DNA from: a virus
Reading direction: 5' to 3' (one strand)
IMG/VR virus record: IMGVR_UViG_3300045988_177631
DNA length: 39,491 nucleotides
Both the position numbers and the translations under genes were made by a program. A model generated the notes under the pieces. It had not been told where the DNA came from. It was given only the letters and a program-made list of their open reading frames with translations, and searched no databases. Shown one piece after another: positions 6,928 to 20,872 of the stretch (positions are counted from its first letter, which is position 1; every line of letters begins with the position of its first letter).

Positions 6928-8697
6928 ATGGAATTGCGCTGGTATCAACAAGAGGCAATCGATGCCATCCGCAGCTACACCGGTCGGGCTGGCATCATCA
7001 ACCTGCCCACGGGGGCGGGCAAGAGCATCGTCATCGCCCACGCCGTGGCTGACACGCTGGGGCACGGTGGTCGGGCCCTGGTCGCCATCCACAACGGCGA
7101 TCTAGTCCGTCAGAACGGGGCTGCCATTGAGCGGCTGCTGGGGCAGCCTGTCGGCATTGTGTCAGCCTCTGTCGGTCAAAAGAACTGGGCGAGGCAGGCT
7201 GTTACCTGCTCCATTGGGTCGGCATTCCGCCACGCTGGCGCGGCGGGGCGGTTCGATCGCGTCATTATTGACGAGTGCCACCTGGTTTCGGCCGATCCGA
7301 AGACGATGTACGGACAACTGCTGGCTGCCATTCGTAAGACGAATCCAGATATCCAGCTGATCGGCCTGTCGGCCACTCCATGGCGGATGGACGGCCCCTT
7401 GATCGGCGCCGGTGTGTTCGATGACGAGATCTACTCGGCCGGCACCACCAAGGCTTTCGCTCGCCTGCTGAACGACGGCTACCTGTCGCCTCTGGTGGCT
7501 GGCCCCGTATCCGTCATCAACATGGAGGGCGTCAGGCTGGCGACCAACGGAGACTACTCCGAGGGTGATGCCTCGCACAGGGTTGAGCCGCTGCTGCCCG
7601 AACTGGTGCCGCAGATGCTGAAGGATTCGGAGGGGAGGAAGAAGGGCATCGTGTTTGCCCCCACGGTCCGGTGTGCGGAGATGATCGTGGAGCTGCTCAG
7701 GGGGTTGGGTGAATCCTGCGCCATCGTGACCGGCGAGACCCCGAGGGATGAGCGAAAGACCGTGATTGACGCCTTCCGGAACCAGAACGCCTTCCGCTGG
7801 ATGGTCAGCGTCTCGGCTCTCACGACCGGGTTCGATGTGCCCGACATCGATGTGCTAGCCTGCTTCCGGCCAACGAAGTCCTCGGCCCTCTGGGTCCAGA
7901 TCCTCGGGCGCGGCACCCGTGTCCACCCGGACAAGGTGGACTGCCTGGTGCTGGACTACACGGACAATGCCGGGCGCTGCGGCCCGATCGACGATCCGCG
8001 GATCCCGGGCCGCAAGATCAAGGGCGCCGGAGAGGCCATCAAGAAGTACTGCCCCGTGTGCGAGAGGGCCTGCCACGCCTCGGCATGGGTGTGCAGTGTC
8101 TGCGGCCACGAGTTCCCGGTCCAGACCAAGTCCGAGCACGTGCTGGCCAACGCCGAACCACCGATGACCGTGCACGCCGCCCGCACGATGACGGGCGCCA
8201 CCCCTTGCCTGCTACCAACGACCCGCCAAGCCCGCATCGTTATTGACAAGAATGGCCGCCAGTGGTGCCGGGTCAGCTGGACCGACAAGATCAGCCTCCT
8301 TGTCACGGACAAGTGGGCAGCGAAGCTGGGCATCCCGTGGGGGCAGGCCGAAGCTATGACAAACCACGTCATGGCCAACGGAACAAAAACCGTCGTGGCC
8401 ATGATCGACACATCGTCTCAGTACGCCAAGCTGTCAATCCCCCGGGAAGCGCCGCTTGTCCGCGACGTGTGGTGGCCTGTCACGACCACCAGCCAGCTCC
8501 GCGGCATCATGCGCAGACTGGTTTTAGGGGTCGACATGGACCAAGTGATCATGACCCGTGCATGCACGGCGGCGGGCGTCGGCTGCCAGTACGGCCACCT
8601 TCTCCCCATGCTGGCGTCGATCATCCGGGGTAAAATTGACGGAGATGTAACAATCGAGACCTTCGACCAATGGGTCTCTTCCCTCGAGAATCGTTAA
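6928..8697 (+). CDS. SF2 DEAD/DEAH-type DNA helicase with C-terminal zinc ribbon
   Basis: Internal ATG after a ggagg RBS. WYQQEAI, PTGAGKS, DECH, SATP and GRGTR motifs. CPVC...CSVC zinc ribbon. 589 aa. Confidence 0.8.
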   Translation: MELRWYQQEAIDAIRSYTGRAGIINLPTGAGKSIVIAHAVADTLGHGGRALVAIHNGDLVRQNGAAIERLLGQPVGIVSASVGQKNWARQAVTCSIGSAFRHAGAAGRFDRVIIDECHLVSADPKTMYGQLLAAIRKTNPDIQLIGLSATPWRMDGPLIGAGVFDDEIYSAGTTKAFARLLNDGYLSPLVAGPVSVINMEGVRLATNGDYSEGDASHRVEPLLPELVPQMLKDSEGRKKGIVFAPTVRCAEMIVELLRGLGESCAIVTGETPRDERKTVIDAFRNQNAFRWMVSVSALTTGFDVPDIDVLACFRPTKSSALWVQILGRGTRVHPDKVDCLVLDYTDNAGRCGPIDDPRIPGRKIKGAGEAIKKYCPVCERACHASAWVCSVCGHEFPVQTKSEHVLANAEPPMTVHAARTMTGATPCLLPTTRQARIVIDKNGRQWCRVSWTDKISLLVTDKWAAKLGIPWGQAEAMTNHVMANGTKTVVAMIDTSSQYAKLSIPREAPLVRDVWWPVTTTSQLRGIMRRLVLGVDMDQVIMTRACTAAGVGCQYGHLLPMLASIIRGKIDGDVTIETFDQWVSSLENR

Positions 8698-8709
8698 AGG
8701 ACGCAACCA

Positions 8710-10113
8710 ATGCCATATCAAAGCACAGTGCCGGGCGGCCTGATGGAGCTGAAGCCGACACAGGTTTTGGCGCCAAGACCCCGTGACACCTCGGGTCTTG
8801 TTCGAGCCACTGGCGGGCACAACACATGGAAGCTGGACGCACCCCAGTCTGTCGCAGGCCTTCGTGACCAGTTTGAGCTGGCCCGGCCAGGAACGACGTT
8901 CGACCTGACTGGGCAGCTCTTCCATATCCGCGGGCAGCAACTGGTGATCCATGACAACACGGTCGGCATCGTCGGCGGCGTGTTCGTCATCGAGCCGACG
9001 AAGGATGCCCGAGCTGGCCTGCTCCCCCGTGACCGAAAGAACGATCTGACGTTCAAGGACACAGTGTTCATCCTGAAGGGTACTGACACGGAGCACATGG
9101 AGGCCCTCCTGTACGCCTACGCCTGCGAAGGGAAGCTGATCCTCGAAGGCTGCCTGTTCGCCGGCGAGCCGAACTACCCAGGCGCCTGGAACACCCGTGT
9201 TGCTGGCAACTACAAGGTCCCAGAAGGCAGGAGTCGCTGCGTCAGCGTGAAGGCTTCGGGCACGGCGGGGTCCGGTGGGCTGGAGGCTCGTTGCTGCACC
9301 TTCATCATGGCCGATGAGCGTAACCAGCCCACGGGCGGGGCGGGCATCTCCTGCGTGGAGGTAGCTGGCACGCTGCTCAGCAACCAGCGGACACACTACC
9401 AGGCCAACAAGGTGCCGGTAGGTGTTCGCACCTGGGCCAAGGGCGCCTACCTCAAGGACTGCTTCATTCAGGGCGGCTACTACGGGGTCAATCTCGCGGC
9501 TGTGGACGGCTTCCGTGTGGAGGGTTGTGTCGTCACGGGCAACACCCGCGGAATCTCGATGCAGGACTCGACGACCAACGGTGAGATCGTCGGCAATCAG
9601 ATTGTGGACTTCAAATCCAGTGGCGTGCACACGGCGTACGGGACTGCGACCGTGGACGTAGTAGGCAACCACCTCTACTCGGCCGTGGCTGAGGGTCAGG
9701 GCTGTCTGCAGGCCTACTGCGGGACGAGGGACATCGCCTTCCTGGGCAACACGGTCACGTTGGCCGTTGGAACCACGGCCCAGGCCCACGTGTACATCGG
9801 CAACGACGCACAGTCCACGGAAGTGAGGGGCAACATGCTGACCGGCCCGTACCGGGTTGCCAATATCGCCGTAGACCAGTCGTGGACCAAGGTTGGCGAC
9901 AAGCAGTCCACCTACGGCAAGCGCTACGCCGCCGACGAGGTCCTCGGCGTCTCGGCCGAGATGCGTGGCACGGAGTTGCTGGGCAATAAGTCCTGCGGCC
10001 GGATGACCCTGTCCGTGACCGCCACGAATGGCGCTCTGTCGTTGATGACCGATGACATGGACGCCGACATCGGGGGCGTGCAACGCCGTATCGAAGGGCT
10101 GACGGTGGTGTGA
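8710..10113 (+). CDS. Right-handed parallel beta-helix repeat protein (depolymerase/tailspike-like)
   Basis: ORF track 467 aa. Repeated G-N-x-I/V-x-G-N beta-helix turns (VTGNTRGISM, IVGNQIV, VVGNHLY, FLGNTVT, VRGNMLT). Confidence 0.6.
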   Translation: MPYQSTVPGGLMELKPTQVLAPRPRDTSGLVRATGGHNTWKLDAPQSVAGLRDQFELARPGTTFDLTGQLFHIRGQQLVIHDNTVGIVGGVFVIEPTKDARAGLLPRDRKNDLTFKDTVFILKGTDTEHMEALLYAYACEGKLILEGCLFAGEPNYPGAWNTRVAGNYKVPEGRSRCVSVKASGTAGSGGLEARCCTFIMADERNQPTGGAGISCVEVAGTLLSNQRTHYQANKVPVGVRTWAKGAYLKDCFIQGGYYGVNLAAVDGFRVEGCVVTGNTRGISMQDSTTNGEIVGNQIVDFKSSGVHTAYGTATVDVVGNHLYSAVAEGQGCLQAYCGTRDIAFLGNTVTLAVGTTAQAHVYIGNDAQSTEVRGNMLTGPYRVANIAVDQSWTKVGDKQSTYGKRYAADEVLGVSAEMRGTELLGNKSCGRMTLSVTATNGALSLMTDDMDADIGGVQRRIEGLTVV

Positions 10114-10136
10114 GATTCGACCGTCCGTCGGGTCGA

Positions 10137-10159
10137 AGGGGCCGTCTGGCCCCTTTTTC
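10137..10159 (+). terminator. Intrinsic terminator
   Basis: AGGGGCC-gtct-GGCCCCT followed by a T run. Confidence 0.7.
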
Positions 10160-10181
10160 GTTTCCAGGGCGATCACGGCGG

Positions 10182-10210
10182 TTGACATGGAGGGGTGCCG
10201 CCTGTACAGT
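10182..10210 (+). promoter_or_regulatory. Sigma70-like promoter TTGACA-N17-TACAGT
   Basis: Read directly. Confidence 0.6.
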
Positions 10211-10301
10211 CACGTCCATCGACAGAGCACCAACCACCGCCGAGTCGAGACCATAATCCCACGGGGGTTGTGTGAACCGAAACAAACAAAGGAGCAGTAC
10301 C

Positions 10302-11153
10302 ATGAAGAAGACCATCCTCGCCCTGTCCCTGGCCCTGATCGCCGCCCCGGCAATGGCCACCAACACCCCTGGCGCTGACTGCGTTGGCGTCAATGCCTGC
10401 AAGACCAACTCGGACAACCGCACCACCAACACGAGCAACAACCCCGTCGCCTCGGTCAATGGCGTCAACCCAGAGGCCCATGCGCAGCAGCAGCAGCAGC
10501 AAGGCCAGGGGCAAGGTCAAACCGCAACAGGCGGCAGCGTCGGCGGGATCCAACTGGCTCCGCACACGTCTCTGGCCACGGGTGGGTACAGCTACAACAA
10601 CAAGAGCCTGTCGATCAACCCGGTCACGGTGCCCGCCGCCGCGATGGTAGCTCCTTCGGCTGAGATCTCCCGGGTGGCTGACCCCTACTGCGGTCCGCGT
10701 CAGAAGGTGATGTCGACCGACGTCAACGGCCGTGTGATCGGCCTGGTGTGGGACAGTAACGTCCCTCTGGGTGAGAATCAGTGGCTTGCCCCGGACCTGG
10801 ATGAGCCGTACCGACGAGTGGAAGTGATGCCCGGCCTGACTCAACTGATCGGCCACAAGGTGCACGAGACCACCACGGTGCTGACGGTCTCTACGTCTGG
10901 CTCCCTGGCCTTCGGGGCCAATGGCGGGTCCGGCTCCGGAGGTTCGATCGGGACCTCCCGGGGCGGCGCCCTGCAGCGGATGGTAACCACGATCCGTGTG
11001 CAGGAGTGTGTGGCCTACGAGATTGTGCCCAAGGCGATGGAGCTGCCCAAGGTGAAGGCCAAGCCCAAGGCCAGGCCCGCGAAGGTCGCGCCGAAGCCCT
11101 GCGACGTGTGCCAGCGCCCCCAGGTCAATCTGACTGTCAACGTCCAGAAGTAA
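10302..11153 (+). CDS. Secreted protein of unknown function with Gln/Gly low-complexity tract
   Basis: Internal ATG of ORF 10272..11153 after aaggag. Signal peptide MKKTILALSLALIAAPAMA with an AxA cleavage site. Confidence 0.65.
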   Translation: MKKTILALSLALIAAPAMATNTPGADCVGVNACKTNSDNRTTNTSNNPVASVNGVNPEAHAQQQQQQGQGQGQTATGGSVGGIQLAPHTSLATGGYSYNNKSLSINPVTVPAAAMVAPSAEISRVADPYCGPRQKVMSTDVNGRVIGLVWDSNVPLGENQWLAPDLDEPYRRVEVMPGLTQLIGHKVHETTTVLTVSTSGSLAFGANGGSGSGGSIGTSRGGALQRMVTTIRVQECVAYEIVPKAMELPKVKAKPKARPAKVAPKPCDVCQRPQVNLTVNVQK

Positions 11154-11200
11154 CCCAACCACCCCGGGGCTTCGGCCCCGGAAAACCCCAGAGAAAGACC

Positions 11201-11470
11201 ATGATCACGAACGTCATCTCCGAAGCCCACGATGTGCGGGCCCCTTCGTCGCAAATCGACTCAATTCTGCAGGACGCGAATGCAATCGAAGCAAGCGTGA
11301 TGCACACGGGGGCAAGACTGGCGCTTTACAAAATCCATGACGGACGATATGCCGTCGAGATAAAGAGGTGCTCAGAGAGAAGGCTATGGGTCGACGAATC
11401 CATCGCGAACATCAGGGAGCAGTACGAGTGGCTCAAGTTTTTGAACAGCGATTTCGGTGCCACCGAGTAA
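11201..11470 (+). CDS. Small hypothetical protein, paralog family member A
   Basis: Internal ATG of ORF 11006..11470. 89 aa. Aligns by eye with 11840 and 12102 products. Confidence 0.55.
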   Translation: MITNVISEAHDVRAPSSQIDSILQDANAIEASVMHTGARLALYKIHDGRYAVEIKRCSERRLWVDESIANIREQYEWLKFLNSDFGATE

Positions 11471-11481
11471 AGGAGGCGGCA

Positions 11482-11778
11482 ATGGAGTACGGATACCATG
11501 TGGTTCACTACGCAGCCCCAACCATCGACCTCTACGTGTGCGAGCCAGCCGGATCGAGGCCAGTGGCCCATTACGAGCGACTCGGCGAGGTCTTCTACGA
11601 CGGCACGCAGGCCATGTGCTCGGACTTTCTCGACGACCTCTGGTCCGAGATCGGCGGAGATCGAATCTCTGCGTGCGGGCGGGAGTCACTGGTGGTGACC
11701 TGTGCCCAGGGGGCCGAGCCACCCCGCCGAGACGGTATGACCTACCACTCGTCGGCAGAGCTTGACACGCAGGGCTGA
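11482..11778 (+). CDS. Hypothetical protein
   Basis: Internal ATG of ORF 11368..11778 after an aggagg RBS. 98 aa. Confidence 0.55.
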   Translation: MEYGYHVVHYAAPTIDLYVCEPAGSRPVAHYERLGEVFYDGTQAMCSDFLDDLWSEIGGDRISACGRESLVVTCAQGAEPPRRDGMTYHSSAELDTQG

Positions 11779-11790
11779 CCCCGTCACAAT
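11762..11790 (+). promoter_or_regulatory. Sigma70-like promoter TTGACA-N17-CACAAT
   Basis: Read directly. Overlaps the 3-prime end of the preceding CDS. Confidence 0.55.
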
Positions 11791-11839
11791 GCATCCAACC
11801 CAGACGCCATCTGGGTAGCTCGACAAAGGAAACCAGATT

Positions 11840-12094
11840 ATGCACACCATCACCGCATCCCAAGACCGTCCCGAGCAACAGGAAGAGGCTCGCGATATCC
11901 TGTCCGCAGCCCTCCTCTTGGAGGCCCGCGAGTTCCCGAGCGGCGTCGTCATTGCCCGCTTCGCCACCGAGCACGGGGGTTACGCCTGCACAGTGGAGCG
12001 CGGCCACAACCTCAAGCTGTGGATGAGCGACCGCTACGAGGACATCATCAGCAAGTATGACTTCCTCACTCACTCGAACCTCTACTCGGAGTAA
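11840..12094 (+). CDS. Small hypothetical protein, paralog family member B
   Basis: ORF track 84 aa. Starts MHTI like the next gene. Confidence 0.6.
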   Translation: MHTITASQDRPEQQEEARDILSAALLLEAREFPSGVVIARFATEHGGYACTVERGHNLKLWMSDRYEDIISKYDFLTHSNLYSE

Positions 12095-12101
12095 TCCAGC
12101 C

Positions 12102-12359
12102 ATGCACACCATCATCTCCCGCTCCGGCGACCTGAACCACCAAGAGCAACGCTCCTTCATCCGCGGAGTTACCGAAACCGCAGATGCACTCGAGGACGTC
12201 GACTGCTCCGACGGAGGTACGCTGACCCTCTACCGCGACCGCGAGGGCACCTGCGTGGTCCTGTACTCCCGACGGGATTACCTCAGGGCAGGCATCACCG
12301 ATTCAATCAGCGATGCCAAAGAACTCTTCGGCTTCCTGAAGCTGATCCACCTTGCCTGA
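12102..12359 (+). CDS. Small hypothetical protein, paralog family member C
   Basis: Internal ATG of ORF 12057..12359. 85 aa. Starts MHTI. Confidence 0.6.
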   Translation: MHTIISRSGDLNHQEQRSFIRGVTETADALEDVDCSDGGTLTLYRDREGTCVVLYSRRDYLRAGITDSISDAKELFGFLKLIHLA

Positions 12360-12380
12360 CACCATAGGACCCAACCTCAG

Positions 12381-12408
12381 AGGGCGCTTCGGCGCCCTTT
12401 GTTGTTTC
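12381..12408 (+). terminator. Intrinsic terminator
   Basis: AGGGCGC-ttcg-GCGCCCT followed by tttgttgttt. Confidence 0.7.
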
Positions 12409-12433
12409 TGCCCCTGCCGTTCGTCGGCCCGAT

Positions 12434-12462
12434 TTGACGAGCTCCAGCACACGAGGCATCAT
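12434..12462 (+). promoter_or_regulatory. Sigma70-like promoter TTGACG-N17-CATCAT
   Basis: Read directly. An inverted CCGTTCGTCGG motif lies just upstream. Confidence 0.45.
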
Positions 12463-12515
12463 GCACACCATGCCCGACACACTTCGTGTCCGGCCCCACA
12501 GAAGGAACCCAAGCC

Positions 12516-12857
12516 ATGAAACGCATTGCCCTCGCCGCCGCCCTCCTGCTCCCCCTGGGTGCCCAAGCACACGGCTTCCCCCGGGAGCAAGAAATGGAGG
12601 CCGCAGCCTTTGTCCTGGCCGTGACTGACGTCACCAAGGCCGCCGCCATCTTCATCAAGGACGTGAACCCAAGCCCGATGCTCCTTCTGAAAGAGCGCAA
12701 CAAGGCCCTCAGGGAGATCGAGAACGGGGAGATGGGCAAAGACAAGCTTGTCCACGTCTGCCGCGCTCTGGCAATGATCAATCCCAATGCCAGTTGCGAG
12801 CGAGCACACGAGTCATTCCTTGCGGAACGCAAAGCCGGCAACCCGCTGGTCCACTGA
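12516..12857 (+). CDS. Small secreted protein
   Basis: Internal ATG of ORF 12486..12857. Signal peptide MKRIALAAALLLPLGAQA. Confidence 0.6.
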   Translation: MKRIALAAALLLPLGAQAHGFPREQEMEAAAFVLAVTDVTKAAAIFIKDVNPSPMLLLKERNKALREIENGEMGKDKLVHVCRALAMINPNASCERAHESFLAERKAGNPLVH

Positions 12858-12890
12858 ACCATCAACCTATCACCAGGAGTGATATCAACC

Positions 12891-13184
12891 ATGATCTACG
12901 AAGCCCACCCCGCCCGCTGCCTGCTGGACATCCTGAACGCCTACGACCTGCGTGGCAAGAGCCGGAGCGACGCCGGTCAGATGCTGATCGAGGCTGCCTG
13001 CGGTAACGTCTCCACCTTCACGGCCAAGGGCCGGGTCTTCGCCGCCACACGGGGCAGGAACGGTAACCTGGTGGTCTCCGTTGAGGCCATCTACCCGAAT
13101 GGCCGGGAGCAAGCCAAGGCCTTGGCGCTGGCCTCCCTGGCTATGCGTGGCCGTGCCCAGAAGGTCAAGGAGGCCCTGAAATGA
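12891..13184 (+). CDS. Hypothetical protein
   Basis: ATG 12 nt inside ORF 12879..13184, with aggag upstream. 97 aa. Confidence 0.55.
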   Translation: MIYEAHPARCLLDILNAYDLRGKSRSDAGQMLIEAACGNVSTFTAKGRVFAATRGRNGNLVVSVEAIYPNGREQAKALALASLAMRGRAQKVKEALK

Positions 13185-13735
13185 TCACCTACGCCGACGC
13201 CTCGGGGCCGGTCACAGGGGAGCCCGGGGACCCCGAGCACGGCGCGTGCCGTGTGTGCATGTTCCATGACGCCCCCACGGGGGCGCTCATGTACCGGGTT
13301 GAGAAGGAGTCCTCGCTCCCCGCAGAGGAGGCGGAGCTCATCGCCATCCATGTGAACGCTGCCTACGCCAAGAGGTTGCTCTCCTACATCCAGTCACAGG
13401 AGGGCGGGGAACTGGGCGCCAAGGGCTGCATGCTCCTCGTCCGCGGGGCAACACTGGCCTCTGATACTGCCTCACACACCTCCTCCGGGGAGGTCCGGAA
13501 GGGCTTCCCGGACCCGAGGAGACCGACCTCACACAACCCGCAAGGGTCCCCTGACTGGCGGGCCGAGCACCCGGATTTGCACCCCGAGCCGCAGGCAGGC
13601 GACGCTGTGATCGCGTCCGAACACCTCCTCCCCTCGGTCGACCCGGATGCCTCTGAGCCCATGATCTCACTCTCCCGCACAGGGGTGGTGGGGGCAATCA
13701 CGGGGGGTGAGGAGGAGGAGCCGGAGCTCTTCTAG
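13181..13735 (+). CDS. Hypothetical protein with acidic C-terminal tail (EEEEPELF)
   Basis: ORF track 184 aa. ATGA coupling to the upstream gene. Confidence 0.55.
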   Translation: MITYADASGPVTGEPGDPEHGACRVCMFHDAPTGALMYRVEKESSLPAEEAELIAIHVNAAYAKRLLSYIQSQEGGELGAKGCMLLVRGATLASDTASHTSSGEVRKGFPDPRRPTSHNPQGSPDWRAEHPDLHPEPQAGDAVIASEHLLPSVDPDASEPMISLSRTGVVGAITGGEEEEPELF

Positions 13736-13742
13736 CGGGGAG

Positions 13743-13762
13743 TTATCCACAGGTTATCCACA
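13743..13762 (+). promoter_or_regulatory. Two tandem perfect DnaA boxes (TTATCCACA x2, 11-bp period)
   Basis: Read directly: agTTATCCACAggTTATCCACAgg. Matches the consensus DnaA box 9-mer. Confidence 0.75.
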
Positions 13763-13768
13763 GGCTAC

Positions 13769-13793
13769 GACCCGCTTCGGCGGGTCTTTTTTT
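13769..13793 (+). terminator. Intrinsic terminator
   Basis: GACCCGC-ttcg-GCGGGTC followed by T7. Confidence 0.8.
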
Positions 13794-13814
13794 GCCTATC
13801 TTCTAGGCAGTCAA

Positions 13815-14232
13815 ATTTGCTAAAAGTACCCTCAACTATCTGGGTAATTTGCTAAAAGTATCTGACCCCAATTTGCTAAAAGTGCCCAAACTATCCTCCC
13901 CAGCCCGGGGAGGATACTTTTAGCAAGTGCAAATTTGTTAAATCCTGAGACACAAAAGCTCATTTGCTAAAGGGTAGGATGAAGTCATTATCTACCCTTT
14001 AGCAAATTGTGGATTATCTACCCTTTAGCAAATTTGCTGAAAGATCAACGACTTACGTTTTAGCAAATATCTATATCGTGGTCATCTTATATGCCTGTAC
14101 CCCCCTAAAAACCAAGGTCCTAATAAGGGAGAAGATATTTGCTAAAAGTCCCCCGGGGAGGATAATTTGCTAAAAGTCCGAGGGGGGAGGATAATTTGCT
14201 AAAAGTCCCGGGGAGGATAATTTGCTAAAAGT
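13815..14232. repeat. Iteron array: 7 exact and 7 variant copies of ATTTGCTAAAAGT in both orientations within an AT-rich tract (candidate replication origin or operator array)
   Basis: Exact copies start at 13815, 13847, 13871, 14137, 14165, 14194 and 14220. Variant or inverted copies lie at 13916, 13933, 13962, 13992, 14018, 14032 and 14057. The last four copies sit in 26-29-bp GGGGAGGATA-ATTTGCTAAAAGT-CCC units. Confidence 0.85.
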
Positions 14233-14322
14233 CCCCCGGGGCGGCAGTGGCACCTCCCCGGGGTGGGCGGGGTGGTGGGGCCGGCTCGCCCCGAGCCCTT
14301 CTCGCCACCTGTGCTCGCACCC

Positions 14323-14352
14323 TTGACAACTGTGCGAGGGGCGGGCCATGAT
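14323..14352 (+). promoter_or_regulatory. Candidate promoter TTGACA-N18-CATGAT abutting the iteron array
   Basis: Read directly. The spacer carries TGTGCGAGG. Confidence 0.45.
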
Positions 14353-14386
14353 TGGCGTCACTCATCAACTGACACAAGGAGGTGTC

Positions 14387-15163
14387 ATGAGCAGTACGCC
14401 CTTCGCCCTCATGCTGTACCCTGTGCTCGCCCCGGCTGAGGCAGCCCAACCCGTCATCACTCGATCCGTTATCGAGGGCAACGCCATCGACGCGAGACCG
14501 GCCAAGGTCGATGGCTGGATGTTCCTGAGGATGAAGCTCAAGCCGCTTGAGCGGTTTGATGATCCGAACCGGTCCCTGATCGTGTCCCGGCTGGAGCCTA
14601 AGCAGCTCGGCGAGCTTGAGGGCTCGCAGGGTGGGTACCTGAAGAGCATCCGTGCACACACACACACGTGGCTGCAGGCCGGCGGTGACCTTGAGTTGGC
14701 GACCAAGAGGCTGGCCGAGTACAGAGCCATGGAGGCCGAGGCCGTTGCCCCAGGAGAGGAATGGGGGCCGCCTCGCCAACCAGGAAAGCAACAGCCCATC
14801 ACCCCCGCGATCGCCCCCTCACAGCCAGGCGTGCGTGGCAAGGACAAGGCCCCGCGCCAAAGGCGTCGTGACGAGTACGTGGCGTACACCTCGCCCCACG
14901 GGGAGTCGCTGATGATCTTAGGCAGCTCCGAGCTGGGCCGCGACCTGCTGGCGAACGGGGCGTACGTGCCGAATGGATGGAGCTGCCGGAGGGTGTGCTC
15001 CGAATCCCCCAAGGACGTGCGCTCGCTGCTCAAGAGGCTTGGTTCCATGAAGGCGGAAGGGGTGGCGGAGGAGAGGGCGCGCACAATGCTCGAGATCTTC
15101 CTGAGGGGTGACAATCCATCGGCTACTCGCACGCCGGTCACGCGGGCGACAAACGGCACTTGA
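14387..15163 (+). CDS. Hypothetical protein next to the iterons (candidate initiator or iteron-binding protein; speculative)
   Basis: Internal ATG of ORF 14348..15163 after aaggagg. 258 aa. No motif recognised; the functional guess rests on position only. Confidence 0.6.
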   Translation: MSSTPFALMLYPVLAPAEAAQPVITRSVIEGNAIDARPAKVDGWMFLRMKLKPLERFDDPNRSLIVSRLEPKQLGELEGSQGGYLKSIRAHTHTWLQAGGDLELATKRLAEYRAMEAEAVAPGEEWGPPRQPGKQQPITPAIAPSQPGVRGKDKAPRQRRRDEYVAYTSPHGESLMILGSSELGRDLLANGAYVPNGWSCRRVCSESPKDVRSLLKRLGSMKAEGVAEERARTMLEIFLRGDNPSATRTPVTRATNGT

Positions 15164-15188
15164 CCTGCCCCCTTGTGCGAGGCATACT
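15160..15188 (+). promoter_or_regulatory. Sigma70-like promoter TTGACC-N17-CATACT
   Basis: Read directly. The spacer ends with TGTGCGAGG. AAACGG lies 3 nt upstream of the -35. Confidence 0.55.
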
Positions 15189-15396
15189 CCACCTCGTAGC
15201 CCCGCGATACAAGGCAGAGCTGAATTCGACCGCACGTGCACCTGAGCTTGCCGAGCAAACGAATCAGCATCCTGCGGTCCCTGGCGCGGGCTACGCCCCC
15301 TTGGGCGCGTTTCATGGCATCGGTAAGGGGTAACACCATCCAACGCCTTCGCGAGCTCCTAGGGGCCTTCTAGCCCTTCCTAGAGGCATTCACATC

Positions 15397-15525
15397 ATGC
15401 ACCCCATCACAGTCCTTGTCCTCATCCTGATCGCCACGGCCCTGATCTTCATCCTCATGGAGATCAAGGCCCGGGCCGCGGTTCGCAGGTTCGAGAAAAT
15501 CACCAAACATTCACAAGGAGAATAA
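15397..15525 (+). CDS. Small membrane peptide (42 aa)
   Basis: Below ORF-track cutoff. The sequence MHPITVLVLILIATALIFILMEIK is hydrophobic. Confidence 0.45.
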   Translation: MHPITVLVLILIATALIFILMEIKARAAVRRFEKITKHSQGE

Positions 15526-15529
15526 TTCC

Positions 15530-15625
15530 ATGACCTTGATCGGTCTCATCTCCGCCACCCTCATTGCCCTGACCGGCTTCGCTGTCATCAGCTCAGGGCT
15601 CAGCAACCACAACGACTGGGAGTAA
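15530..15625 (+). CDS. Small membrane peptide (31 aa)
   Basis: Below ORF-track cutoff. aaggag RBS. MTLIGLISATLIALTGFAVISSG. Ends 2 nt before the next ATG. Confidence 0.45.
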   Translation: MTLIGLISATLIALTGFAVISSGLSNHNDWE

Positions 15626-15627
15626 CC

Positions 15628-16167
15628 ATGATCCTCATTGGCATCGCAGGCCCTGCACAATCGGGCAAATCCACCCTCGCAGGCGAGTTCCGCCGGCTCG
15701 TCGAGTTCCGTGGTCAGAAGTTCAGCGAGCAACCCTTTGCCGGGCCGCTGAAGCGGATGCTGGCCTCCATCGGGGTGGATGTGTCAGACCTATCGAAGAA
15801 TTGTCCCGTGCCCTTCCTTGACGGGAAGGTGACCCCTCGTGTCATGATGCAGACCCTTGGCACGGAGTGGGGGCGGGCCCTGCTGCCCCACCTGTGGCTG
15901 TGTGTCTGGCAGCATGAGCTGGATGATTCTGCCCACTGCGTGTGCGTGCCCGATGTTCGGTTTGACAACGAGGCTGGACTGATTCGCTCGCTGGGCGGAA
16001 CAATCGTCCACATCAGCCGCAAACCAACCGCAGAGATGCTCGCGGTACCCGCTCATGCATCTGAGACTGGTATCGCTCGTGCAAAGGGCGATATCATCTT
16101 CCGCAACGATCGGGGTATCGAGAAGATGTCCCAGTTCGCCGCATCTATTTTGGACAACGCCAAGTGA
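15628..16167 (+). CDS. Deoxynucleoside monophosphate kinase-like P-loop kinase
   Basis: ORF track 179 aa. GPAQSGKST P-loop, TLGTEWGR and DVRFDNE motifs resembling phage dNMP kinases. Confidence 0.6.
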   Translation: MILIGIAGPAQSGKSTLAGEFRRLVEFRGQKFSEQPFAGPLKRMLASIGVDVSDLSKNCPVPFLDGKVTPRVMMQTLGTEWGRALLPHLWLCVWQHELDDSAHCVCVPDVRFDNEAGLIRSLGGTIVHISRKPTAEMLAVPAHASETGIARAKGDIIFRNDRGIEKMSQFAASILDNAK

Positions 16168-16979
16168 AAGCAAAGAAACCTCATGACGCCCCGCGCGTCA
16201 TCGCCCTTGACATCGAGACTGCCCCATGTGTCGCCTACGTCTGGCGCACTGGCAAGCAGGTCATTGGTATCGACCACATCCAACAGGAGTCCACCCTGAT
16301 CTCATTCTCGTGGGCAGAATGGGAGTTTGGCAGGGTCAAGAAAGCCAAGTACCTCTCCACCTTCGAGCAGGCCAACCAGCGGGATGACAAGCGGCTGGTC
16401 ACAGCCCTGTGGGAGATCCTGAAGGGTGCCACCCATGTGATTGCCCACAACGGGGCACGGTTCGATTGGCCGATGATCAATGGGGCGTTCTATCGCTGCG
16501 GGCTGTCCCCTCTGCCCAAGCCCAAGATCCTGGACACGATGCTGATGGCTCGCCAGATCGGCGGCCAAGCCTCCTACAAACTGGCGTGGCTAACCAAGGA
16601 CCAGGCCCGGTCCAAGCGGTCACACTCCAAGTTCCCGGGGCTGCAGCTCTGGATCGAGTGGCTGAACCGCAATCCGGCTGCCGAGCGTGAGATGCGGCTC
16701 TACAACAACATGGACGTTGAGGCCATGTGCGAGCTGCTGAACCGTGTCCTGCCATGGGCTCGTGGCCCGCAGTTTGCTGGCCTGGTGCCGCAGTCCGAGG
16801 GTCGCGAAGAGGAGGCTCATCACTGCCCCCGCTGTGGATCGGCCGATATCGTGCCCCGCGGCTTCACCACCACCGTGGCCGGCCGTTACCAGCGATACCG
16901 CTGCTCCGACTGCGGTGGCTGGTCACAGTCCCGGTTCCTGGTCCATGAGAAGCGGAAACACCTACTGAAGACCATCTGA
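16164..16979 (+). CDS. DnaQ-like DEDD 3-5 exonuclease (RNase H fold) with C-terminal zinc ribbon
   Basis: ORF track 271 aa. ALDIET, HNGARFDWPMI and YNNMDVEA motifs. CPRC...CSDC zinc ribbon. Confidence 0.65.
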   Translation: MKAKKPHDAPRVIALDIETAPCVAYVWRTGKQVIGIDHIQQESTLISFSWAEWEFGRVKKAKYLSTFEQANQRDDKRLVTALWEILKGATHVIAHNGARFDWPMINGAFYRCGLSPLPKPKILDTMLMARQIGGQASYKLAWLTKDQARSKRSHSKFPGLQLWIEWLNRNPAAEREMRLYNNMDVEAMCELLNRVLPWARGPQFAGLVPQSEGREEEAHHCPRCGSADIVPRGFTTTVAGRYQRYRCSDCGGWSQSRFLVHEKRKHLLKTI

Positions 16980-16985
16980 TGAATA

Positions 16986-17001
16986 CCCCGCTCCGGCGGG
17001 G
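16986..17001 (+). terminator. Candidate terminator hairpin (weak T tract)
   Basis: CCCCGC-tccg-GCGGGG followed by ttgact. Confidence 0.35.
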
Positions 17002-17022
17002 TTGACTCATACGGGGTAGCAA

Positions 17023-17202
17023 ATGAATGCTGACGTAATCGCCTTTGTCCTGCTTGTGCTCGATGCTCTGCTGTTTGTCGCCGGCATCATCATTCTGACT
17101 GCAGCCAGGATTCATGACGAGGAGGTGAGGCTGGCGTTGTTGGCCTCCCTGCCCATTGTAGGCCGGCTGCTAGCGGCCGCCTACCGCCGGTTCGACCGAT
17201 AG
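17023..17202 (+). CDS. Small membrane protein (59 aa)
   Basis: One residue below the ORF-track cutoff. MNADVIAFVLLVLDALLFVAGIIILTAA. Confidence 0.5.
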   Translation: MNADVIAFVLLVLDALLFVAGIIILTAARIHDEEVRLALLASLPIVGRLLAAAYRRFDR

Positions 17203-17209
17203 ACGGTGG

Positions 17210-17238
17210 TTGATACGCGTGATGAGATGGGGCAAAAT
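17210..17238 (+). promoter_or_regulatory. Candidate promoter TTGATA-N17-CAAAAT
   Basis: Read directly. Weaker match than the other promoters. Confidence 0.35.
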
Positions 17239-17277
17239 ACACCCCATCGACACACCAACTCTTCAACGGGTTTCATC

Positions 17278-17526
17278 ATGGATCGTCAAATCGCCCGCGG
17301 CTACGCCACCCAAGCCCTCTGCGCCGTTATCAGCAACAACGGTGTGCTGTACACCCAGGACTTCCGTGGCCGCAAAACCCCTGTTGCACAGTTCACCAAA
17401 GGCCTTGACAAGGTGAACCCCCTGAGCTACGATGCACACACACAAGCGATGGCCATCCTCAAGGCTCACCGCTACCTGGGCATCACGATGCCGGTTTTCT
17501 TCGAAACCGAGCTGAGTGAAGTCTGA
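17278..17526 (+). CDS. Hypothetical protein
   Basis: Internal ATG of ORF 17206..17526. 82 aa. Confidence 0.5.
   Translation: MDRQIARGYATQALCAVISNNGVLYTQDFRGRKTPVAQFTKGLDKVNPLSYDAHTQAMAILKAHRYLGITMPVFFETELSEV
17405..17433 (+). promoter_or_regulatory. Sigma70-like promoter TTGACA-N17-TACGAT (inside the preceding CDS)
   Basis: Read directly. Confidence 0.45.
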
Positions 17527-17596
17527 ATGCAGCAAACATCGCGCCTCACACAGGCGTGTGAATTGAAACGACTCAACCACACTTGGAGCAAACACC

Positions 17597-17902
17597 ATGT
17601 TCACCAAACTCGTTCCCGACGCATCCTCGGTCCGCGTCTCCCCGTCCTCCGGCATCATCGACTCCGCTGAGCACGTTGTCATCCAGCCGGGGCAGGTTCA
17701 GAGGGTCGGCACCGGCCTGTTCACTGATCAGAGCCTGATCCTGGCCATCGACAAATACGAAGACGGCGTGCTCGATATGTGCGAGCTGCTGACCACGGCC
17801 GTCCCTGCTGACCGCGAGGTGAGGGTTGCCATCCTGAATCGCGGCACGGATCCCGTCACAATTCCGGTCGGCTACAGCTTCCTCGAGTTCCTCGAGATCT
17901 GA
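17597..17902 (+). CDS. Hypothetical beta-rich protein (faint dUTPase-fold resemblance, unverified)
   Basis: ORF track 101 aa. Confidence 0.55.
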   Translation: MFTKLVPDASSVRVSPSSGIIDSAEHVVIQPGQVQRVGTGLFTDQSLILAIDKYEDGVLDMCELLTTAVPADREVRVAILNRGTDPVTIPVGYSFLEFLEI

Positions 17903-17909
17903 TGCAACA

Positions 17910-17936
17910 AGGGCCCTTCGGGGCCCTCCCCTTTTT
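17910..17936 (+). terminator. Intrinsic terminator
   Basis: AGGGCCC-ttcg-GGGCCCT followed by cccctttttcc. Confidence 0.7.
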
Positions 17937-17954
17937 CCAAGGAGTCACTCAATC

Positions 17955-18383
17955 ATGATGACCACCACAACCTACGGCTTTCGGGCCGAAGAGGATCGGA
18001 TGCGGGACAGTGATGACCGCTCCGAAGCCCGTGCTCGCCGCGAGGCCCTGGTCTGGGGCGCTCTTCAGGCCATCAAGCAGCCACAGCTCCGTGAGACGGC
18101 CTACGATGCCCTGGAGCCCGAGATCAACGATAACGACGTCACCCCTGGTTGGTTCCAGGTTGGCCACTACATCGTCGGCGTTGATAATCACGATGGCCTC
18201 CGGGTTGCCGTCCACCAAATCCAACCCCATCAGCGAGACCTGATTGGCGCGGAGGGCTTGACACAGCGGCCCGGGGACCTTGGGGCCCAGGGCGGATTCA
18301 CCTGGAGCGAGCGGATCGGAAACGCGCAGTGTCACGCTCGATTCCATGAGAATGAGTTCATCGTCAACATCACCAGGAGATAA
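17955..18383 (+). CDS. Hypothetical protein
   Basis: ORF track 142 aa. aaggag RBS. Confidence 0.6.
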   Translation: MMTTTTYGFRAEEDRMRDSDDRSEARARREALVWGALQAIKQPQLRETAYDALEPEINDNDVTPGWFQVGHYIVGVDNHDGLRVAVHQIQPHQRDLIGAEGLTQRPGDLGAQGGFTWSERIGNAQCHARFHENEFIVNITRR

Positions 18384-18388
18384 GCCCC

Positions 18389-18781
18389 ATGTGCGCGCTT
18401 CGCCTCTTCCTCGTCTACGCAGCCATCGCTGCCTTCGCCCTGATCCATTCCTGCTCTGTGCGCGCCACCGAGTCGGCCCACCAGGGCGCTGTGGCCGCCA
18501 ACTGGTGCAACTACCTCGGTCCGGATTGTCAGCCGTATGGACTCTCTCCCAAGGGGTACATCGTGTTCCAGTACCTGACCTCGCCCGAGAGTATGCCGAG
18601 CAAGCACAGGAGCATTGCCTCTCACGAGCTCTCTACCGTCGAGACCGATGTGGCTGCCGGGGATCCCGCCACCTGTGCACGGGGGCGTGATATTGCCAAG
18701 GCCATGCGAGGATCCCCGTCGCCCGACATGAAGCGCCGTGGTCGAGAGCTGTTTGACCTCATCGGCGAGAAATGCGATTGA
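18389..18781 (+). CDS. Cys-containing exported protein
   Basis: ORF track 130 aa. N-terminal hydrophobic signal LFLVYAAIAAFALIHSCSVRA. Confidence 0.55.
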   Translation: MCALRLFLVYAAIAAFALIHSCSVRATESAHQGAVAANWCNYLGPDCQPYGLSPKGYIVFQYLTSPESMPSKHRSIASHELSTVETDVAAGDPATCARGRDIAKAMRGSPSPDMKRRGRELFDLIGEKCD

Positions 18782-18804
18782 ATGGAGTCAATGGATACGA
18801 GAAA

Positions 18805-18828
18805 GGGGGTAGTATTACCCCCTTTTTT
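18805..18828. terminator. Bidirectional intrinsic terminator at the convergence of the early and late arms
   Basis: GGGGGTA-gtat-TACCCCC flanked by an A tract upstream and a T6 tract downstream. Confidence 0.8.
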
Positions 18829-19286
18829 CATTTCTGGACCTGTTGCACGTACGCCCAGCAGGCATCCGCCCAGGCCCTCAGTTCGTCCGCTCTGTCGGCC
18901 TCTCCCCGAAGAAACGCTCCAGCCTCATCCGAAAGTCGCCATCCGGCGGCGCCTCCTGGAGTGCTGATGGTGTGACCGGTGCCACTGGCGTTGCGGTCGT
19001 GCAGGCTACCAGTGTGCTTGCCAGCATCAGCCCGCAGACGACGGAGCTCGGCCCGATACTTCCGGTCGATCTGCTGTGCACGCTGCAGTCCTGCGCGCTC
19101 AGCCCTGGCGATCTGCTCCAGCGCCCGGATGTGTTGGGCATCACTCTTCGCCTCGTGCCACTGGTGTATTGCCAGCATCCCCAGGATTGCCGCCACCCCG
19201 TGGGTCAGCGCCCACATGGGCAGGCGTCTGGCGGATGATGCGAGCAATGATGATAGCGAGGCCAATCCACTTGCCAAAGTCATCAC
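18828..19286 (-). CDS. Rz: Rz-like i-spanin
   Basis: ORF track 152 aa. N-terminal TM segment, then an Arg/Glu/Ala coiled coil. Last gene of the lysis cassette. The true start may be Met24 (19217). Confidence 0.65.
   Translation of the reverse strand: MMTLASGLASLSSLLASSARRLPMWALTHGVAAILGMLAIHQWHEAKSDAQHIRALEQIARAERAGLQRAQQIDRKYRAELRRLRADAGKHTGSLHDRNASGTGHTISTPGGAAGWRLSDEAGAFLRGEADRADELRAWADACWAYVQQVQK
18878..19027 (-). CDS. Rz1: Rz1-like o-spanin lipoprotein embedded in Rz in another frame
   Basis: Part of ORF 18878..19144. MLASTLVAC lipobox followed by a Pro-rich segment. The start codon is uncertain. Confidence 0.45.
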   Translation of the reverse strand: MLASTLVACTTATPVAPVTPSALQEAPPDGDFRMRLERFFGERPTERTN

Positions 19287-19404
19287 CCAGGTACTCCTTC
19301 AGTTCGGGCAGGTAACCCCCTGCCACCTCCAGTGCCACCAGTGCTGCAGCTACCTGCACGCTGAACAGCCTGTACGCTTGCTTCCAGTCATCAATCAGCA
19401 TCAT
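19141..19404 (-). CDS. Holin-like two-TM protein
   Basis: ORF track 87 aa. Two hydrophobic segments. Immediately downstream of the endolysin. Its 3-prime end overlaps Rz. Confidence 0.5.
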   Translation of the reverse strand: MMLIDDWKQAYRLFSVQVAAALVALEVAGGYLPELKEYLGDDFGKWIGLAIIIARIIRQTPAHVGADPRGGGNPGDAGNTPVARGEE

Positions 19405-19814
19405 CTTTCCACCTCAAAGTGCGGTCCATCGAAGAATTTGGCGGCCAGGAAGGGGTAATCACTGCACTTCGGCCCACTGATCCAGCGCCAGGAACCGCCC
19501 CAGCGTACCGGCAACCCGAACTCCAGCGCTACCTGTGCAAAGGTCCGTGCCAGCTCTGTGTAGGCCTTCGGGGTCCAGTCCGGCTTGCCACCCGGCATCA
19601 CAACCAGGTCCACTGCGTGGCCAGTCAAGTGCTTGCTGTCCAAGACCTTGGATTTGCCGGCCGCCACGAGCTCCTTCTGGCGAGCCGCTGTGCGAAGCCC
19701 TTCAGTCACATGGCACTCGACAGGGTGGCGCAAGATCACCTGCAGGGCCACCGCGGCCAGCACGGTATCCACGCCTTTGAGGCGCTCTAGGTCTCTCTCG
19801 TTCGGCTTAGCCAC
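19401..19814 (-). CDS. Endolysin, peptidase M15 (VanY/L-Ala-D-Glu peptidase type)
   Basis: ORF track 137 aa. SKHLTGHAVDL and DGPHFE zinc-ligand motifs. Confidence 0.8.
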   Translation of the reverse strand: MAKPNERDLERLKGVDTVLAAVALQVILRHPVECHVTEGLRTAARQKELVAAGKSKVLDSKHLTGHAVDLVVMPGGKPDWTPKAYTELARTFAQVALEFGLPVRWGGSWRWISGPKCSDYPFLAAKFFDGPHFEVER

Positions 19815-20088
19815 GGCGTTGGCTCTCCATTCGGTCCTCGAGGCGCGACAGCTGCCCCGTCTGTTGGCGCATCATTGCGATGACCTGCCCCATCTGGGCG
19901 GACAGGCGCTCGATCTCGCTGCGACTCACGGCCTCCTTCTGGGCCTCCACGCGGGCCTGCATCACGCGGCGCTCAAGATCGGACAGCTGATCAGACTGCT
20001 TGGTGATGCGCGCTTGAATGGTCGCCACCCACGCCAGAGCGAACGGAGTGAGGATTGATGCCAGACGCTGAAGGTCGTTGAGGTCCAT
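19807..20088 (-). CDS. Membrane-anchored coiled-coil protein (possible holin/antiholin)
   Basis: ORF track 93 aa. One hydrophobic segment ILTPFALAWVATI, then a coiled coil. Confidence 0.45.
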   Translation of the reverse strand: MDLNDLQRLASILTPFALAWVATIQARITKQSDQLSDLERRVMQARVEAQKEAVSRSEIERLSAQMGQVIAMMRQQTGQLSRLEDRMESQRRG

Positions 20089-20870: not shown

Positions 20871-20872
20871 GA

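Follow-up and report, generated by a model that had tools for sequence, protein, structure and literature searches.

In the lambdoid ori-O systems (lambda, phi80 and P22 relatives), the iterons and the N-terminal DNA-binding part of the initiator co-vary, and the rest of the replication module is conserved. The P4-type origins have a fused primase-helicase (the alpha protein) and a repeat-containing origin distant from its gene. Origins of uncultured phages are almost never annotated, and initiators make up a large share of the viral 'dark matter'. Origins are typically tightly linked to their own initiator gene, and the lambda ori lies within gene O (PMC7157519). DnaA boxes, iterons, an AT-rich region and an adjacent initiator gene form the defining layout of the iteron replicons (PMC4980987). 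An origin-like module was analysed in the IMG/VR virus record IMGVR_UViG_3300045988_177631, which comes from an uncultured phage of human oral metagenomes; "the window" refers to the whole stretch of 39,491 bases. The module is located within the replication and recombination gene block. Since invariant DnaA boxes, a type-specific repeat array, an AT-rich centre and an adjacent basic protein are combined at this location, an origin with an initiator of a new family is favoured. The region 13742-15163 is therefore read, with moderate confidence, as an iteron-type replication origin with a cognate and probably autoregulated initiator, which would be assisted by host DnaA. The anatomy of the locus, its conservation, the co-variation of its cassette, and the basic charge and orphan status of the protein were established here by direct observation. 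The features are listed below with their positions in the window, strand and description.

13181..13735, plus strand, constant upstream gene of an acidic protein of 184 amino acids (aa), preceding the DnaA boxes
13742..13764, plus strand, tandem DnaA boxes, two copies of GTTATCCACAGG, 11 bp start to start; 11-bp tandem of two copies of GTTATCCACAG
13769..13793, plus strand, intrinsic terminator GACCCGCTTCGGCGGGTC followed by T7, with a 7-bp GC stem and a UUCG loop, closing the upstream operon
13793..13809, no strand, palindrome TGCCTA-N5-TAGGCA, variants of which are kept across cassette types
13815..13883, plus strand, three exact direct repeats ATTTGCTAAAAGT (starts 13815, 13847 and 13871)
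13892..13916, no strand, palindrome TATCCTCCCC-N5-GGGGAGGATA; the conserved half of the bipartite repeat, rich in G, is GGGGAGG
13916..14068, no strand, AT-rich block at the centre, holding seven variant repeats in both orientations: 13916-13928 (minus), 13933-13944 (plus), 13962-13977 (plus), 13992-14007 (minus), 14018-14033 (minus), 14032-14044 (plus) and 14056-14068 (minus)
14008-14016, minus strand, weak third DnaA box TAATCCACA
14043-14055, IHF-consensus-like ATCAAC-N3-TTA in the central AT-rich block
14058..14147, no strand, perfect 15-nt inverted-repeat arms (14058-14072 and 14133-14147) around a 60-bp core (14073-14132)
14137..14232, plus strand, four tandem units near the promoter, (GGGGAGGATA)ATTTGCTAAAAGT(CCC), repeating every 26-29 bp; the 23-bp repeat unit is GGGGAGGATAATTTGCTAAAAGT
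14236..14322, no strand, GC-rich spacer (GC 0.805)
14323..14352, plus strand, sigma-70-type promoter TTGACA-18-CATGAT, driving the 258-aa gene
14376-14384, plus strand, strong Shine-Dalgarno sequence AAGGAGGTG before the ATG at 14387
14387..15163, plus strand, gene of the cognate basic two-domain protein of 258 aa, an orphan family

The repeat array is confined to this locus. A search of the window with ATTTGCTAAAAGT at up to 2 mismatches gave 13 matches, all in 13815-14232, against 0.12 expected by chance, and none of 100 shuffles reached 13 (0/100). When the 8-mer core TTGCTAAA was searched with up to 1 mismatch allowed, 14 copies were found, 9 on the plus strand and 5 on the minus strand. 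These are exactly the seven exact and seven variant copies from which a 14-copy iteron array had been proposed, and the motif scan of the genome placed the repeats at this locus only, far above chance. Iteron arrays consist of at least three replicon-specific direct repeats beside an initiator gene; here the 14 locus-confined copies of a type-specific motif lie next to the gene of the 258-aa protein. The smaller elements described earlier were also recovered. These include the palindrome at 13892-13916, the inverted pair 13962-13977/13992-14007 (100% complementary over 16 nt), the four tandem units (starts 14137, 14165, 14194 and 14220; spacings 28, 29 and 26 bp), the terminator with its UUCG loop and T7 at 13769-13793, the GC-rich block at the end of the array, and the candidate promoter of the 14387..15163 gene. 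The AT-rich tract has a GC content of 0.408 over 13790-14235, compared with 0.618 for the whole genome. GC is 0.37 over 13916-14136 and lowest, 0.30, at 14040-14079. In the segment 13916-14136, neither 13-mer-type repeats of DNA unwinding elements nor DnaA-trios were recognised. The inverted-repeat arms with their AT-rich core (14058..14147) are a candidate unwinding or assembly site. The expansion to four units is specific to the window; close relatives have one copy, and other types have two to three with a period of ~27 bp.

Several other readings of the repeats were examined. A simple RNA-stem explanation of the inverted repeats was excluded, because the direct copies change together with the inverted copies. 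Rfam searches of the locus, at the gathering threshold and at E up to 5, returned noise only (miRNA-type matches far below threshold). No tRNA or tmRNA was found at the locus. The exact repeat unit had only seven matches in IMG/VR, all of them single-copy chance matches.

The closest described systems are the iteron theta origins, such as P1 oriR/repA, pSC101, F oriS/repE, RK2 oriV/trfA and R6K gamma. The locus shares with them DnaA boxes at the edge (in tandem in P1), direct repeats, an AT-rich segment, an immediately adjacent gene in the place of the initiator gene, and repeats near its promoter. An IHF-consensus-like site is a further common element (PMC4980987), and is found here in one cassette group: the TGTGG core and the ATCAA..TTA element are retained in L010, L011 and L013. 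However, the protein encoded here has no winged-helix, Rep_3 or other known domain, and many of the repeat copies are inverted. A partition or copy-control locus is absent, and the context is an apparently lytic, myovirus-like 39-kb phage with its own primase-helicase. The start-to-start spacing is 32, 24, 28, 29 and 26 bp in the window and ~27 bp in the other types, that is 24-32 bp, whereas the repeats of the iteron origins are about 22 bp apart and in helical phase (21-22 bp or multiples). The description of the locus as a classic layout is thus partly correct; the boxes, iterons, AT-rich region and adjacent gene are all present, but the spacing is not helically phased, and the last repeat lies ~90 bp from the -35 element. 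Judged by its sequence, the locus would work like P1, pSC101, RK2 and lambda ori-O, but it is not a member of these groups, having no winged-helix Rep and no helical phasing.

Sixteen syntenic loci were compared with the window: L010, L011, L013, L012, L051 (on the same contig as L144) and L145-L156. They were retrieved with the conserved upstream protein; a related-locus search in IMG/VR with the 258-aa protein alone gave nothing. The relatives of both proteins are all unannotated and lie on metagenomic viral contigs of ~38-40 kb. The alignments divide the locus into two parts. The constant part consists, as far as the sequences indicate, of the 184-aa protein gene, the DnaA-box pair, the terminator and a TGCCTA-N5-TAGGCA-like palindrome, which was assigned to this part because its variants are conserved across cassette types. 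Additional copies of this palindrome type were found in L011, L013, L148 and L153. The terminator stem has compensatory changes at 5 of its 7 pairs across 12 loci, and therefore the terminator is a real RNA hairpin. The exchangeable part consists of 8-14 repeat copies (direct and inverted), an AT-rich core of ~60 bp and the gene of a basic protein of ~255-310 aa. The elements follow one another in a conserved order: the upstream repeats come first, then an inverted pair and a single inverted copy, next an AT-rich core of ~55-60 bp and one to four direct copies, and last the promoter and the gene. The arrangement of an inverted copy, the core and direct copies is present in all cassette types, and only the motif itself varies. 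At least six motif types were distinguished, which vary in step with the downstream protein. The motifs are listed by locus.

Window and L010, TTGCTAAAAGT
L011-13, TTGGTAAAAGT
L051/L144, ATCCTTAAGTCA
L147, AATCCTTAAGT / AATCGTTAAGT
L148/153, GGGACTCTACTAAG
L151/156, GGGTAAGGACTAAT
L154, GGGTAATGACTAAG
L155, GAGATAGGACTAAT
L150, a further motif type

Most of the types other than that of the window also contain an element of ~20 bp, ATTGGCTCTACAAGCCAT, just 5' of the inverted copy (L144, L147 and L148-L156; for example at ~4090-4110 in L148). It is reversed in L144 and L147, and sits where the window group has its IHF-like ATCAAC..TTA element.

The co-variation of repeats and downstream protein across these 16 loci identifies the adjacent gene as the partner of the repeats, as had been supposed. 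In loci with the same motif, or a motif different by one base, the downstream proteins are 59, 49 and 48% identical to that of the window; in loci with unrelated motifs, identity is 24-30% or undetectable. The upstream 184-aa protein retains 53-73% identity to the window across all repeat types, and the neighbouring genes overall retain 53-91%. In L051, the genes on either side are 74-91% identical to those of the window, while the protein at the position of the 258-aa protein is invisible to tblastn. It is nevertheless a collinear, full-length remote homologue (hhalign probability 96.5%, E 7e-10, 29% identity), and the downstream proteins of all cassette types align end to end. The sharing of repeated 8-mers was correlated with downstream-protein identity (Spearman rho 0.32-0.38, p 0.004-0.0006), compared with rho 0.22 (p 0.054) for the upstream protein. 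Locus pairs with unrelated motifs have a mean identity of 36-39% in the downstream protein versus 66% in the upstream protein. These pairwise statistics are supportive only, because the pairs are not phylogenetically independent.

The promoter-proximal repeats have two halves, a G-rich one (GGGGAGG) that several types have in common and, following it, a variable AT-rich one. The downstream proteins of L148 and L154 are 93-96% identical in the C-terminal half and 46-66% identical in the first 60 aa, and the repeats of these two loci differ only in the variable half. These joint differences weakly suggest that the N-terminal part of the cognate protein may read the variable half-site. As in the P4-type origins, a phage primase-helicase gene lies away from a repeat-containing origin-like region. 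However, the primase-helicase here is constant, with 74-84% identity whatever the repeat type. It is therefore unlikely to be a sequence-specific reader of the repeats, and the reading based on the analogy with P4 was rejected. The behaviour of the lambdoid ori-O systems is closer, in that repeats and protein co-vary between related phages; the behaviour is analogous, and the proteins are not homologous. Unlike in the lambdoid phages, the repeats are intergenic and upstream of the gene rather than inside it, the Pfam Phage_rep_O domain gave no match (E up to 1), a gene for a P or DnaC-like loader is not adjacent, and an invariant DnaA-box pair is part of the module.

Co-varying proteins and sites are also a hallmark of immunity cassettes, and the main rival explanation is a type-specific transcriptional switch. 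In this case, the 258-aa protein would be an autoregulated repressor or activator of its own operon, with the repeats as operators. The cassette would set regulatory or immunity types as in the lambdoid imm regions, and the DnaA boxes would couple read-through or the promoter to the DnaA status of the host. The operon headed by the 258-aa gene continues with small open reading frames (ORFs), the deoxynucleoside monophosphate (dNMP) kinase, the DnaQ-like exonuclease and downstream genes. A terminator before the array and a conserved sigma-70 promoter after it fit such a switch; an equivalent promoter is conserved in the relatives. The last repeat abuts the -35 element in several cassette types (L151-L156), as compared with ~90 bp upstream of it in the window, where the junctions between tandem units resemble promoters. 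However, promoter control needs far less than 8-14 sites that are spread over 350-450 bp, lie as far as 500 bp from the promoter and enclose an AT-rich core between inverted copies. The 258-aa protein has no detectable helix-turn-helix or regulator domain, the invariant pair of host DnaA boxes is foreign to known immunity regions, and lysogeny genes are absent. The switch is therefore considered unlikely.

The DnaA-box pair is the most invariant element of the locus. Two perfect boxes had been noted after the stop codon of the 13181..13735 gene, and these are the exact TTATCCACA sequences at 13743-13751 and 13754-13762. The window has no other exact boxes; the weak third box at 14008-14016 was overlooked at that time. 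Every related locus that reaches the boxes (n=16) has exactly one pair, 7-10 bp past the stop of the upstream gene, so that the two consensus boxes expected of an iteron origin that uses host DnaA are present at the sequence level in 16 of 16 related loci. In an alignment of 12 loci, the box positions are constant except for one A-to-G change in L010, and they stay constant though the flanking proteins drop to ~53% identity. Because the boxes are constant while the adjacent terminator stem drifts with compensatory changes, they are, judged from the alignment, under strong selection as DNA sequence. A DnaA-trio or basal-unwinding-system reading was dropped, because the boxes are followed by the terminator, and conserved trinucleotide repeats are not seen there.

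Similar box pairs are found in many other phages. The exact 21-mer TTATCCACAGGTTATCCACAG is present in more than 120 IMG/VR contigs with GC contents of 0.33-0.66, often in clusters of two to six boxes. In the unrelated IMG/VR contigs, repeated 8-mers with at least 4 copies occur in 13% of the loci versus 1.5% of the controls (an exact-8-mer statistic on the 350 bp beside the boxes; Mann-Whitney p 2.5e-7). Five of the ten box neighbours sampled belong to replication or recombination, namely three primase-helicases and two Holliday-junction resolvases; the other five are three large terminases, a ParB-like protein and a protein without a match. Among cultured phages, 93 GenBank records contain the box pair, including T5-like phages, large Streptomyces phages, N4-like Pseudomonas phages and Microviridae. 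The pair lies almost always in unannotated intergenic DNA, and often near the record ends. Tandem boxes are thus widespread in phage non-coding DNA, and they are therefore no proof of an origin by themselves. By its distribution, the pair is a widespread phage cis-element that is not diagnostic of an origin when taken alone.

In T5-like phages, DnaA boxes invariably occur as pairs with 3 bp between them, in an untranslated region rich in repeats and palindromes; a membrane-DnaA injection stop was proposed without tests, and an origin role was argued against (bioRxiv 10.1101/866236). The locus resembles T5 iss in its paired consensus DnaA boxes with a 2-3-bp gap, and in a conserved untranslated region with direct and inverted repeats and palindromes (10.1101/866236). 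A T5 iss-like DnaA tether or injection stop, or a titration of DnaA that perturbs host replication, was therefore compared with the origin. The presence of tandem boxes in many cultured phages, often near record ends, would fit a tether. Three near-full-length contigs of this phage family also end within ~300 bp of the locus. However, they end at three different positions in a region that holds the main exact repeats of the genome, so assembly breaks are the simpler explanation, and a physical terminus was not accepted. T5 has ~8 boxes in four pairs, which are tied to the inverted repeats IRC/IRD and lie within the terminal repeat that is first to enter, and it has no adjacent gene of a type-specific protein; here there are one pair and one weak box on a circular assembly without a defined terminal repeat. 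The T5 model is itself an untested hypothesis. It also leaves the type-specific cassette of protein and repeats unexplained, and the Microviridae, which have no two-step injection, carry tandem boxes as well. A tether or titration function is very improbable.

The 258-aa protein belongs to a family that is basic in every cassette type, with isoelectric points (pI) of 9.5-10.9 and net charges of +7 to +19. The AlphaFold2 model has a high-confidence C-terminal alpha/beta domain with a predicted local distance difference test (pLDDT) score of ~90; the N-terminal domain is predicted less confidently, and the linker is basic and disordered. As stated in the original prediction, no family could be recognised: searches against Pfam (E up to 1), PHROGs, NCBIfam, PADLOC and PDB profiles gave no match, and Foldseek gave nothing significant (best E 0.16 in PDB and 0.04 in BFVD). 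These Pfam and NCBIfam searches also detected no Phage_rep_O, helix-turn-helix or other regulator domain. The winged-helix Rep fold that had been suggested for this protein was not found in Pfam, NCBIfam, PHROGs, PDB profiles or the Foldseek searches of PDB and BFVD. Close homologues form 18 clusters. A profile search of 5.8 billion proteins gave 48 clusters, all within this phage group, and an exhaustive HMMER scan of 1.84 billion representatives gave 10 clusters; tblastn against GenBank phages and plasmids gave zero matches. The protein may be a repeat-binding initiator and autoregulator. The earlier suggestion of an undescribed initiator therefore holds for the undescribed family and for its role as the partner of the repeats; the initiator role is what we infer from the sequences.

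The 184-aa protein encoded upstream has an acidic pI (4.3-4.9). Its parts are a folded N-terminal domain, a conserved GFPDPxRPTxHNPxGSPDW motif and an acidic tail that varies but in every case finishes with ...ELF or ...GELPF; the acidic tail described before is the ...EEEEPELF end of the window protein. There are 69 homologue clusters, all in this phage group. The N-terminal domain was modelled by AlphaFold2 with pLDDT >90 and had no fold match (best Foldseek E 0.44 in PDB), so that a winged-helix Rep fold, which had been considered for this gene too, was not found by structure prediction and Foldseek. A role of the protein as a binder of the repeats or of DNA is not supported, as it is acidic and shows no co-variation with the repeats. 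Its tail resembles beta-clamp-binding motifs and the C-terminal tip of SSB. Because of this resemblance, the 184-aa protein is viewed as a possible adaptor for interaction with the replisome.

If the locus is an origin with a new initiator, a sequence of steps can be proposed. The terminator would insulate the origin region from upstream transcription. The basic protein would bind its own repeats, with its N-terminal part probably reading the variable AT-rich half-site, and would oligomerise on the array. Together with DnaA at the box pair, it might then distort or open the AT-rich centre. The phage primase-helicase and parts of the host replisome would be loaded next. The host parts could be recruited via the DDDIPF tail of the phage SSB, and perhaps via the ...ELF/...LPF tail of the 184-aa protein. 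The promoter-adjacent copies would give autoregulation by the basic protein. The SSB-like protein is encoded at 5223-5759 (plus strand), has DUF669 and PHROG SSB matches, and ends in ...KEDDDIPF. The canonical bacterial SSB tip, DDDIPF, suggests that it recruits host SSB-interacting proteins. Repeat binding, DnaA use, unwinding and replication function are what we infer from the arrangement of the locus.

Several findings weigh against an origin at this locus. GC skew has no inflection there. A repressor-operator immunity cassette, or a centromere and the protein that binds it, would be expected to show co-variation of protein and sites just as well, and the locus pairs behind the statistics are not independent phylogenetically. 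The repeats, with a spacing of 24-32 bp (~27-28 bp in the promoter-proximal copies), are out of helical phase, unlike those of classic iteron plasmids. No winged-helix fold, or any other known DNA-binding fold, could be detected in the cognate protein, whose N-terminal domain was modelled at only moderate confidence. Tandem DnaA boxes are common in phage non-coding DNA, including that of T5-like phages, and 3 of the 10 sampled box neighbours are large terminases. Finally, there is a second AT-rich island at 36.9-37.2 kb, whose AT content slightly exceeds even that of the locus. It is kept in 9 of 10 relatives, and could be the true origin or an additional one.

This island was overlooked in the original prediction, and its conservation was determined in the 10 relatives examined. 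It has a strong promoter, TTGACA-17-TATAGT, and has neither DnaA boxes nor multi-copy repeats. The island looks like an early regulatory region.

A plasmid-prophage maintenance origin was also considered, by which the phage would persist as a low-copy episomal lysogen in the manner of P1 (oriR/repA) or of the mycobacteriophages with RepA. In favour of it, the layout is similar to that of P1 oriR and the assembly is circular. An integrase was not detected in the scanned ORFs or in the precomputed Pfam annotations of the relatives, in agreement with the earlier observation. However, extrachromosomal prophages characteristically carry parABS (PMC7157519), and neither ParA/ParB/ParM nor another partition gene, a repressor or an anti-repressor was detected in the same ORFs and annotations. 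The cognate and upstream proteins have no copy in 72,556 plasmids (PLSDB) or 185,579 species genomes, and all relatives are metagenomic viral contigs of ~38-40 kb. TerL and the major capsid protein have only distant matches in plasmids and species genomes; in the 185,579 species genomes, the upstream protein gave nothing, and TerL matched distantly only (up to 44% identity, in Sutterella, Kaistia and Deinococcus). The episomal phage-plasmid option raised earlier is thus not supported, and a maintenance origin of this kind is improbable. Of the origin module as originally interpreted, the origin-like layout, the cognate adjacent gene and the undescribed protein family remain, and the phage-plasmid and the winged-helix Rep do not.

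Arrays of short repeats with a small basic protein also fit pac sites (with TerS) and parC/parS centromeres, which are likewise type-specific. The 258-aa protein could then bind a pac recognition site or a plasmid-type centromere. However, pac sites lie in or beside terS, and TerS here is encoded at 36394-36852, ~22 kb away from the locus; TerS and TerL together occupy 34970-36852, adjoining the other AT-rich island. A partition NTPase was not found anywhere in the scanned ORFs. The module lies inside the replication gene block, and its DnaA boxes would be left unexplained. A pac site or centromere is hence extremely improbable.

A broader interpretation is offered tentatively, as one that is somewhat doubtful. 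The basic proteins of 255-310 aa might form an unrecognised initiator family without a known DNA-binding fold, each reading its own bipartite repeat, with the cassette placed on an invariant DnaA landing pad. The tandem GTTATCCACAGG pair might be a widespread, unannotated DnaA-recruiting element, from Microviridae to 130-kb Streptomyces phages. If this is true, a new initiator family with at least six repeat/protein specificity types on a conserved backbone would be a natural experiment in protein-DNA recognition. Compatible and orthogonal pairs of ori and initiator would be potential vector parts for a currently intractable oral bacterium. Tandem DnaA boxes would serve as a simple sequence flag for candidate origins or DnaA-interaction sites across phage genomes. 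It would also follow that a lytic-looking phage with its own primase-helicase keeps an invariant docking site for host DnaA, and so depends on or senses the host initiator.

The genome around the locus is that of a contractile-tailed, myovirus-like phage according to PHROG and Pfam scans, and its lifestyle is apparently lytic, with its own primase-helicase. The window has a 55-bp exact terminal direct repeat (1-55 and 39437-39491), and therefore it is a circular assembly of a 39,436-bp genome, in which the terminal repeat is an artefact of circular assembly. No close relative was found among GenBank phages, and megablast with the locus gave 0 matches. The minus strand, from 36852 down to 19401, encodes TerS, TerL, the portal, the protease, the major head protein, the sheath, the tape measure, the baseplate and lysis genes; these were assigned by PHROG/Pfam scans of the window and, in relatives, by precomputed Pfam annotations. 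The early and replication block occupies the plus strand from ~37.3 kb across the junction to 19.2 kb. The replication and recombination genes are those of the primase-helicase (870 aa, 38224..1400, across the assembly junction), RusA, a Sak4-like annealase, the SSB-like protein, a Cas4-type exonuclease, a DEAD/ResIII helicase, the dNMP kinase and the DnaQ-like exonuclease.

Between the TerS start and the primase-helicase start, ~1.37 kb (36853-38223) have no credible ORF. This stretch consists of the AT-rich island (GC about 0.33-0.41), a strong promoter that is conserved, TTGACA-17-TACAGT at 37336-37364, and then a non-coding leader of ~860 bp with normal GC. A perfect palindrome, CTGTATGCGCATACAG, at 36953-36968 fits CTGT-N8-ACAG, the SOS/LexA-box pattern of beta- and gammaproteobacteria. 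The SOS-box reading was set aside, because only 3 of 11 genomes, the window counted, have an equivalent site. The leader also contains a solitary CRISPR-repeat-like sequence, GTAGCACCCGGCAACGCGTCGTGTGTGGATTGAAAC, at 37530-37565 (plus strand), which matches Rfam CRISPR-DR9 with 31.4 bits (E 5.7e-5) and so does not reach the gathering score of 45. The sequence at its 3' end, GTGGATTGAAAC, is one typically seen in type I-C repeats. Only one copy occurs, not in an array; it lies within the ORF-free early leader, and 10 relatives lack it. This repeat is a candidate for an RNA anti-CRISPR-like solitary repeat, and might be a clue to the host. The leader segment 37605-37750 (plus strand; ~143-150 nt) is ~90% identical across relatives. 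For this possible structured RNA, a multi-stem consensus fold has compensatory changes at four pairs; the minimum free energy of the single sequence does not surpass that of shuffled controls (z 0.27), and Rfam gave no match.

Two minor observations concern the promoters. The 9-mer TGTGCGAGG lies in the spacer of three plus-strand sigma-70-like promoters, 14323-14352, 15160-15188 and 37336-37364 (at 14331, 15174 and 37346), and may be a regulatory element common to early or middle promoters. The junctions of the tandem units at 14139-14195 (plus strand) resemble promoters of the form TTGCTA-16/17-GATAAT pointing at the 258-aa gene.

A right-handed beta-helix/NosD-like protein of 467 aa, with weak tail-spike-like PHROG matches, is encoded at 8710-10113 (plus strand). 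It is unusual for a depolymerase or tail-spike-like protein to be encoded in the middle of a replication and recombination block. Conservation of this protein is 90% in L010 and L013, and only 51% in L011.

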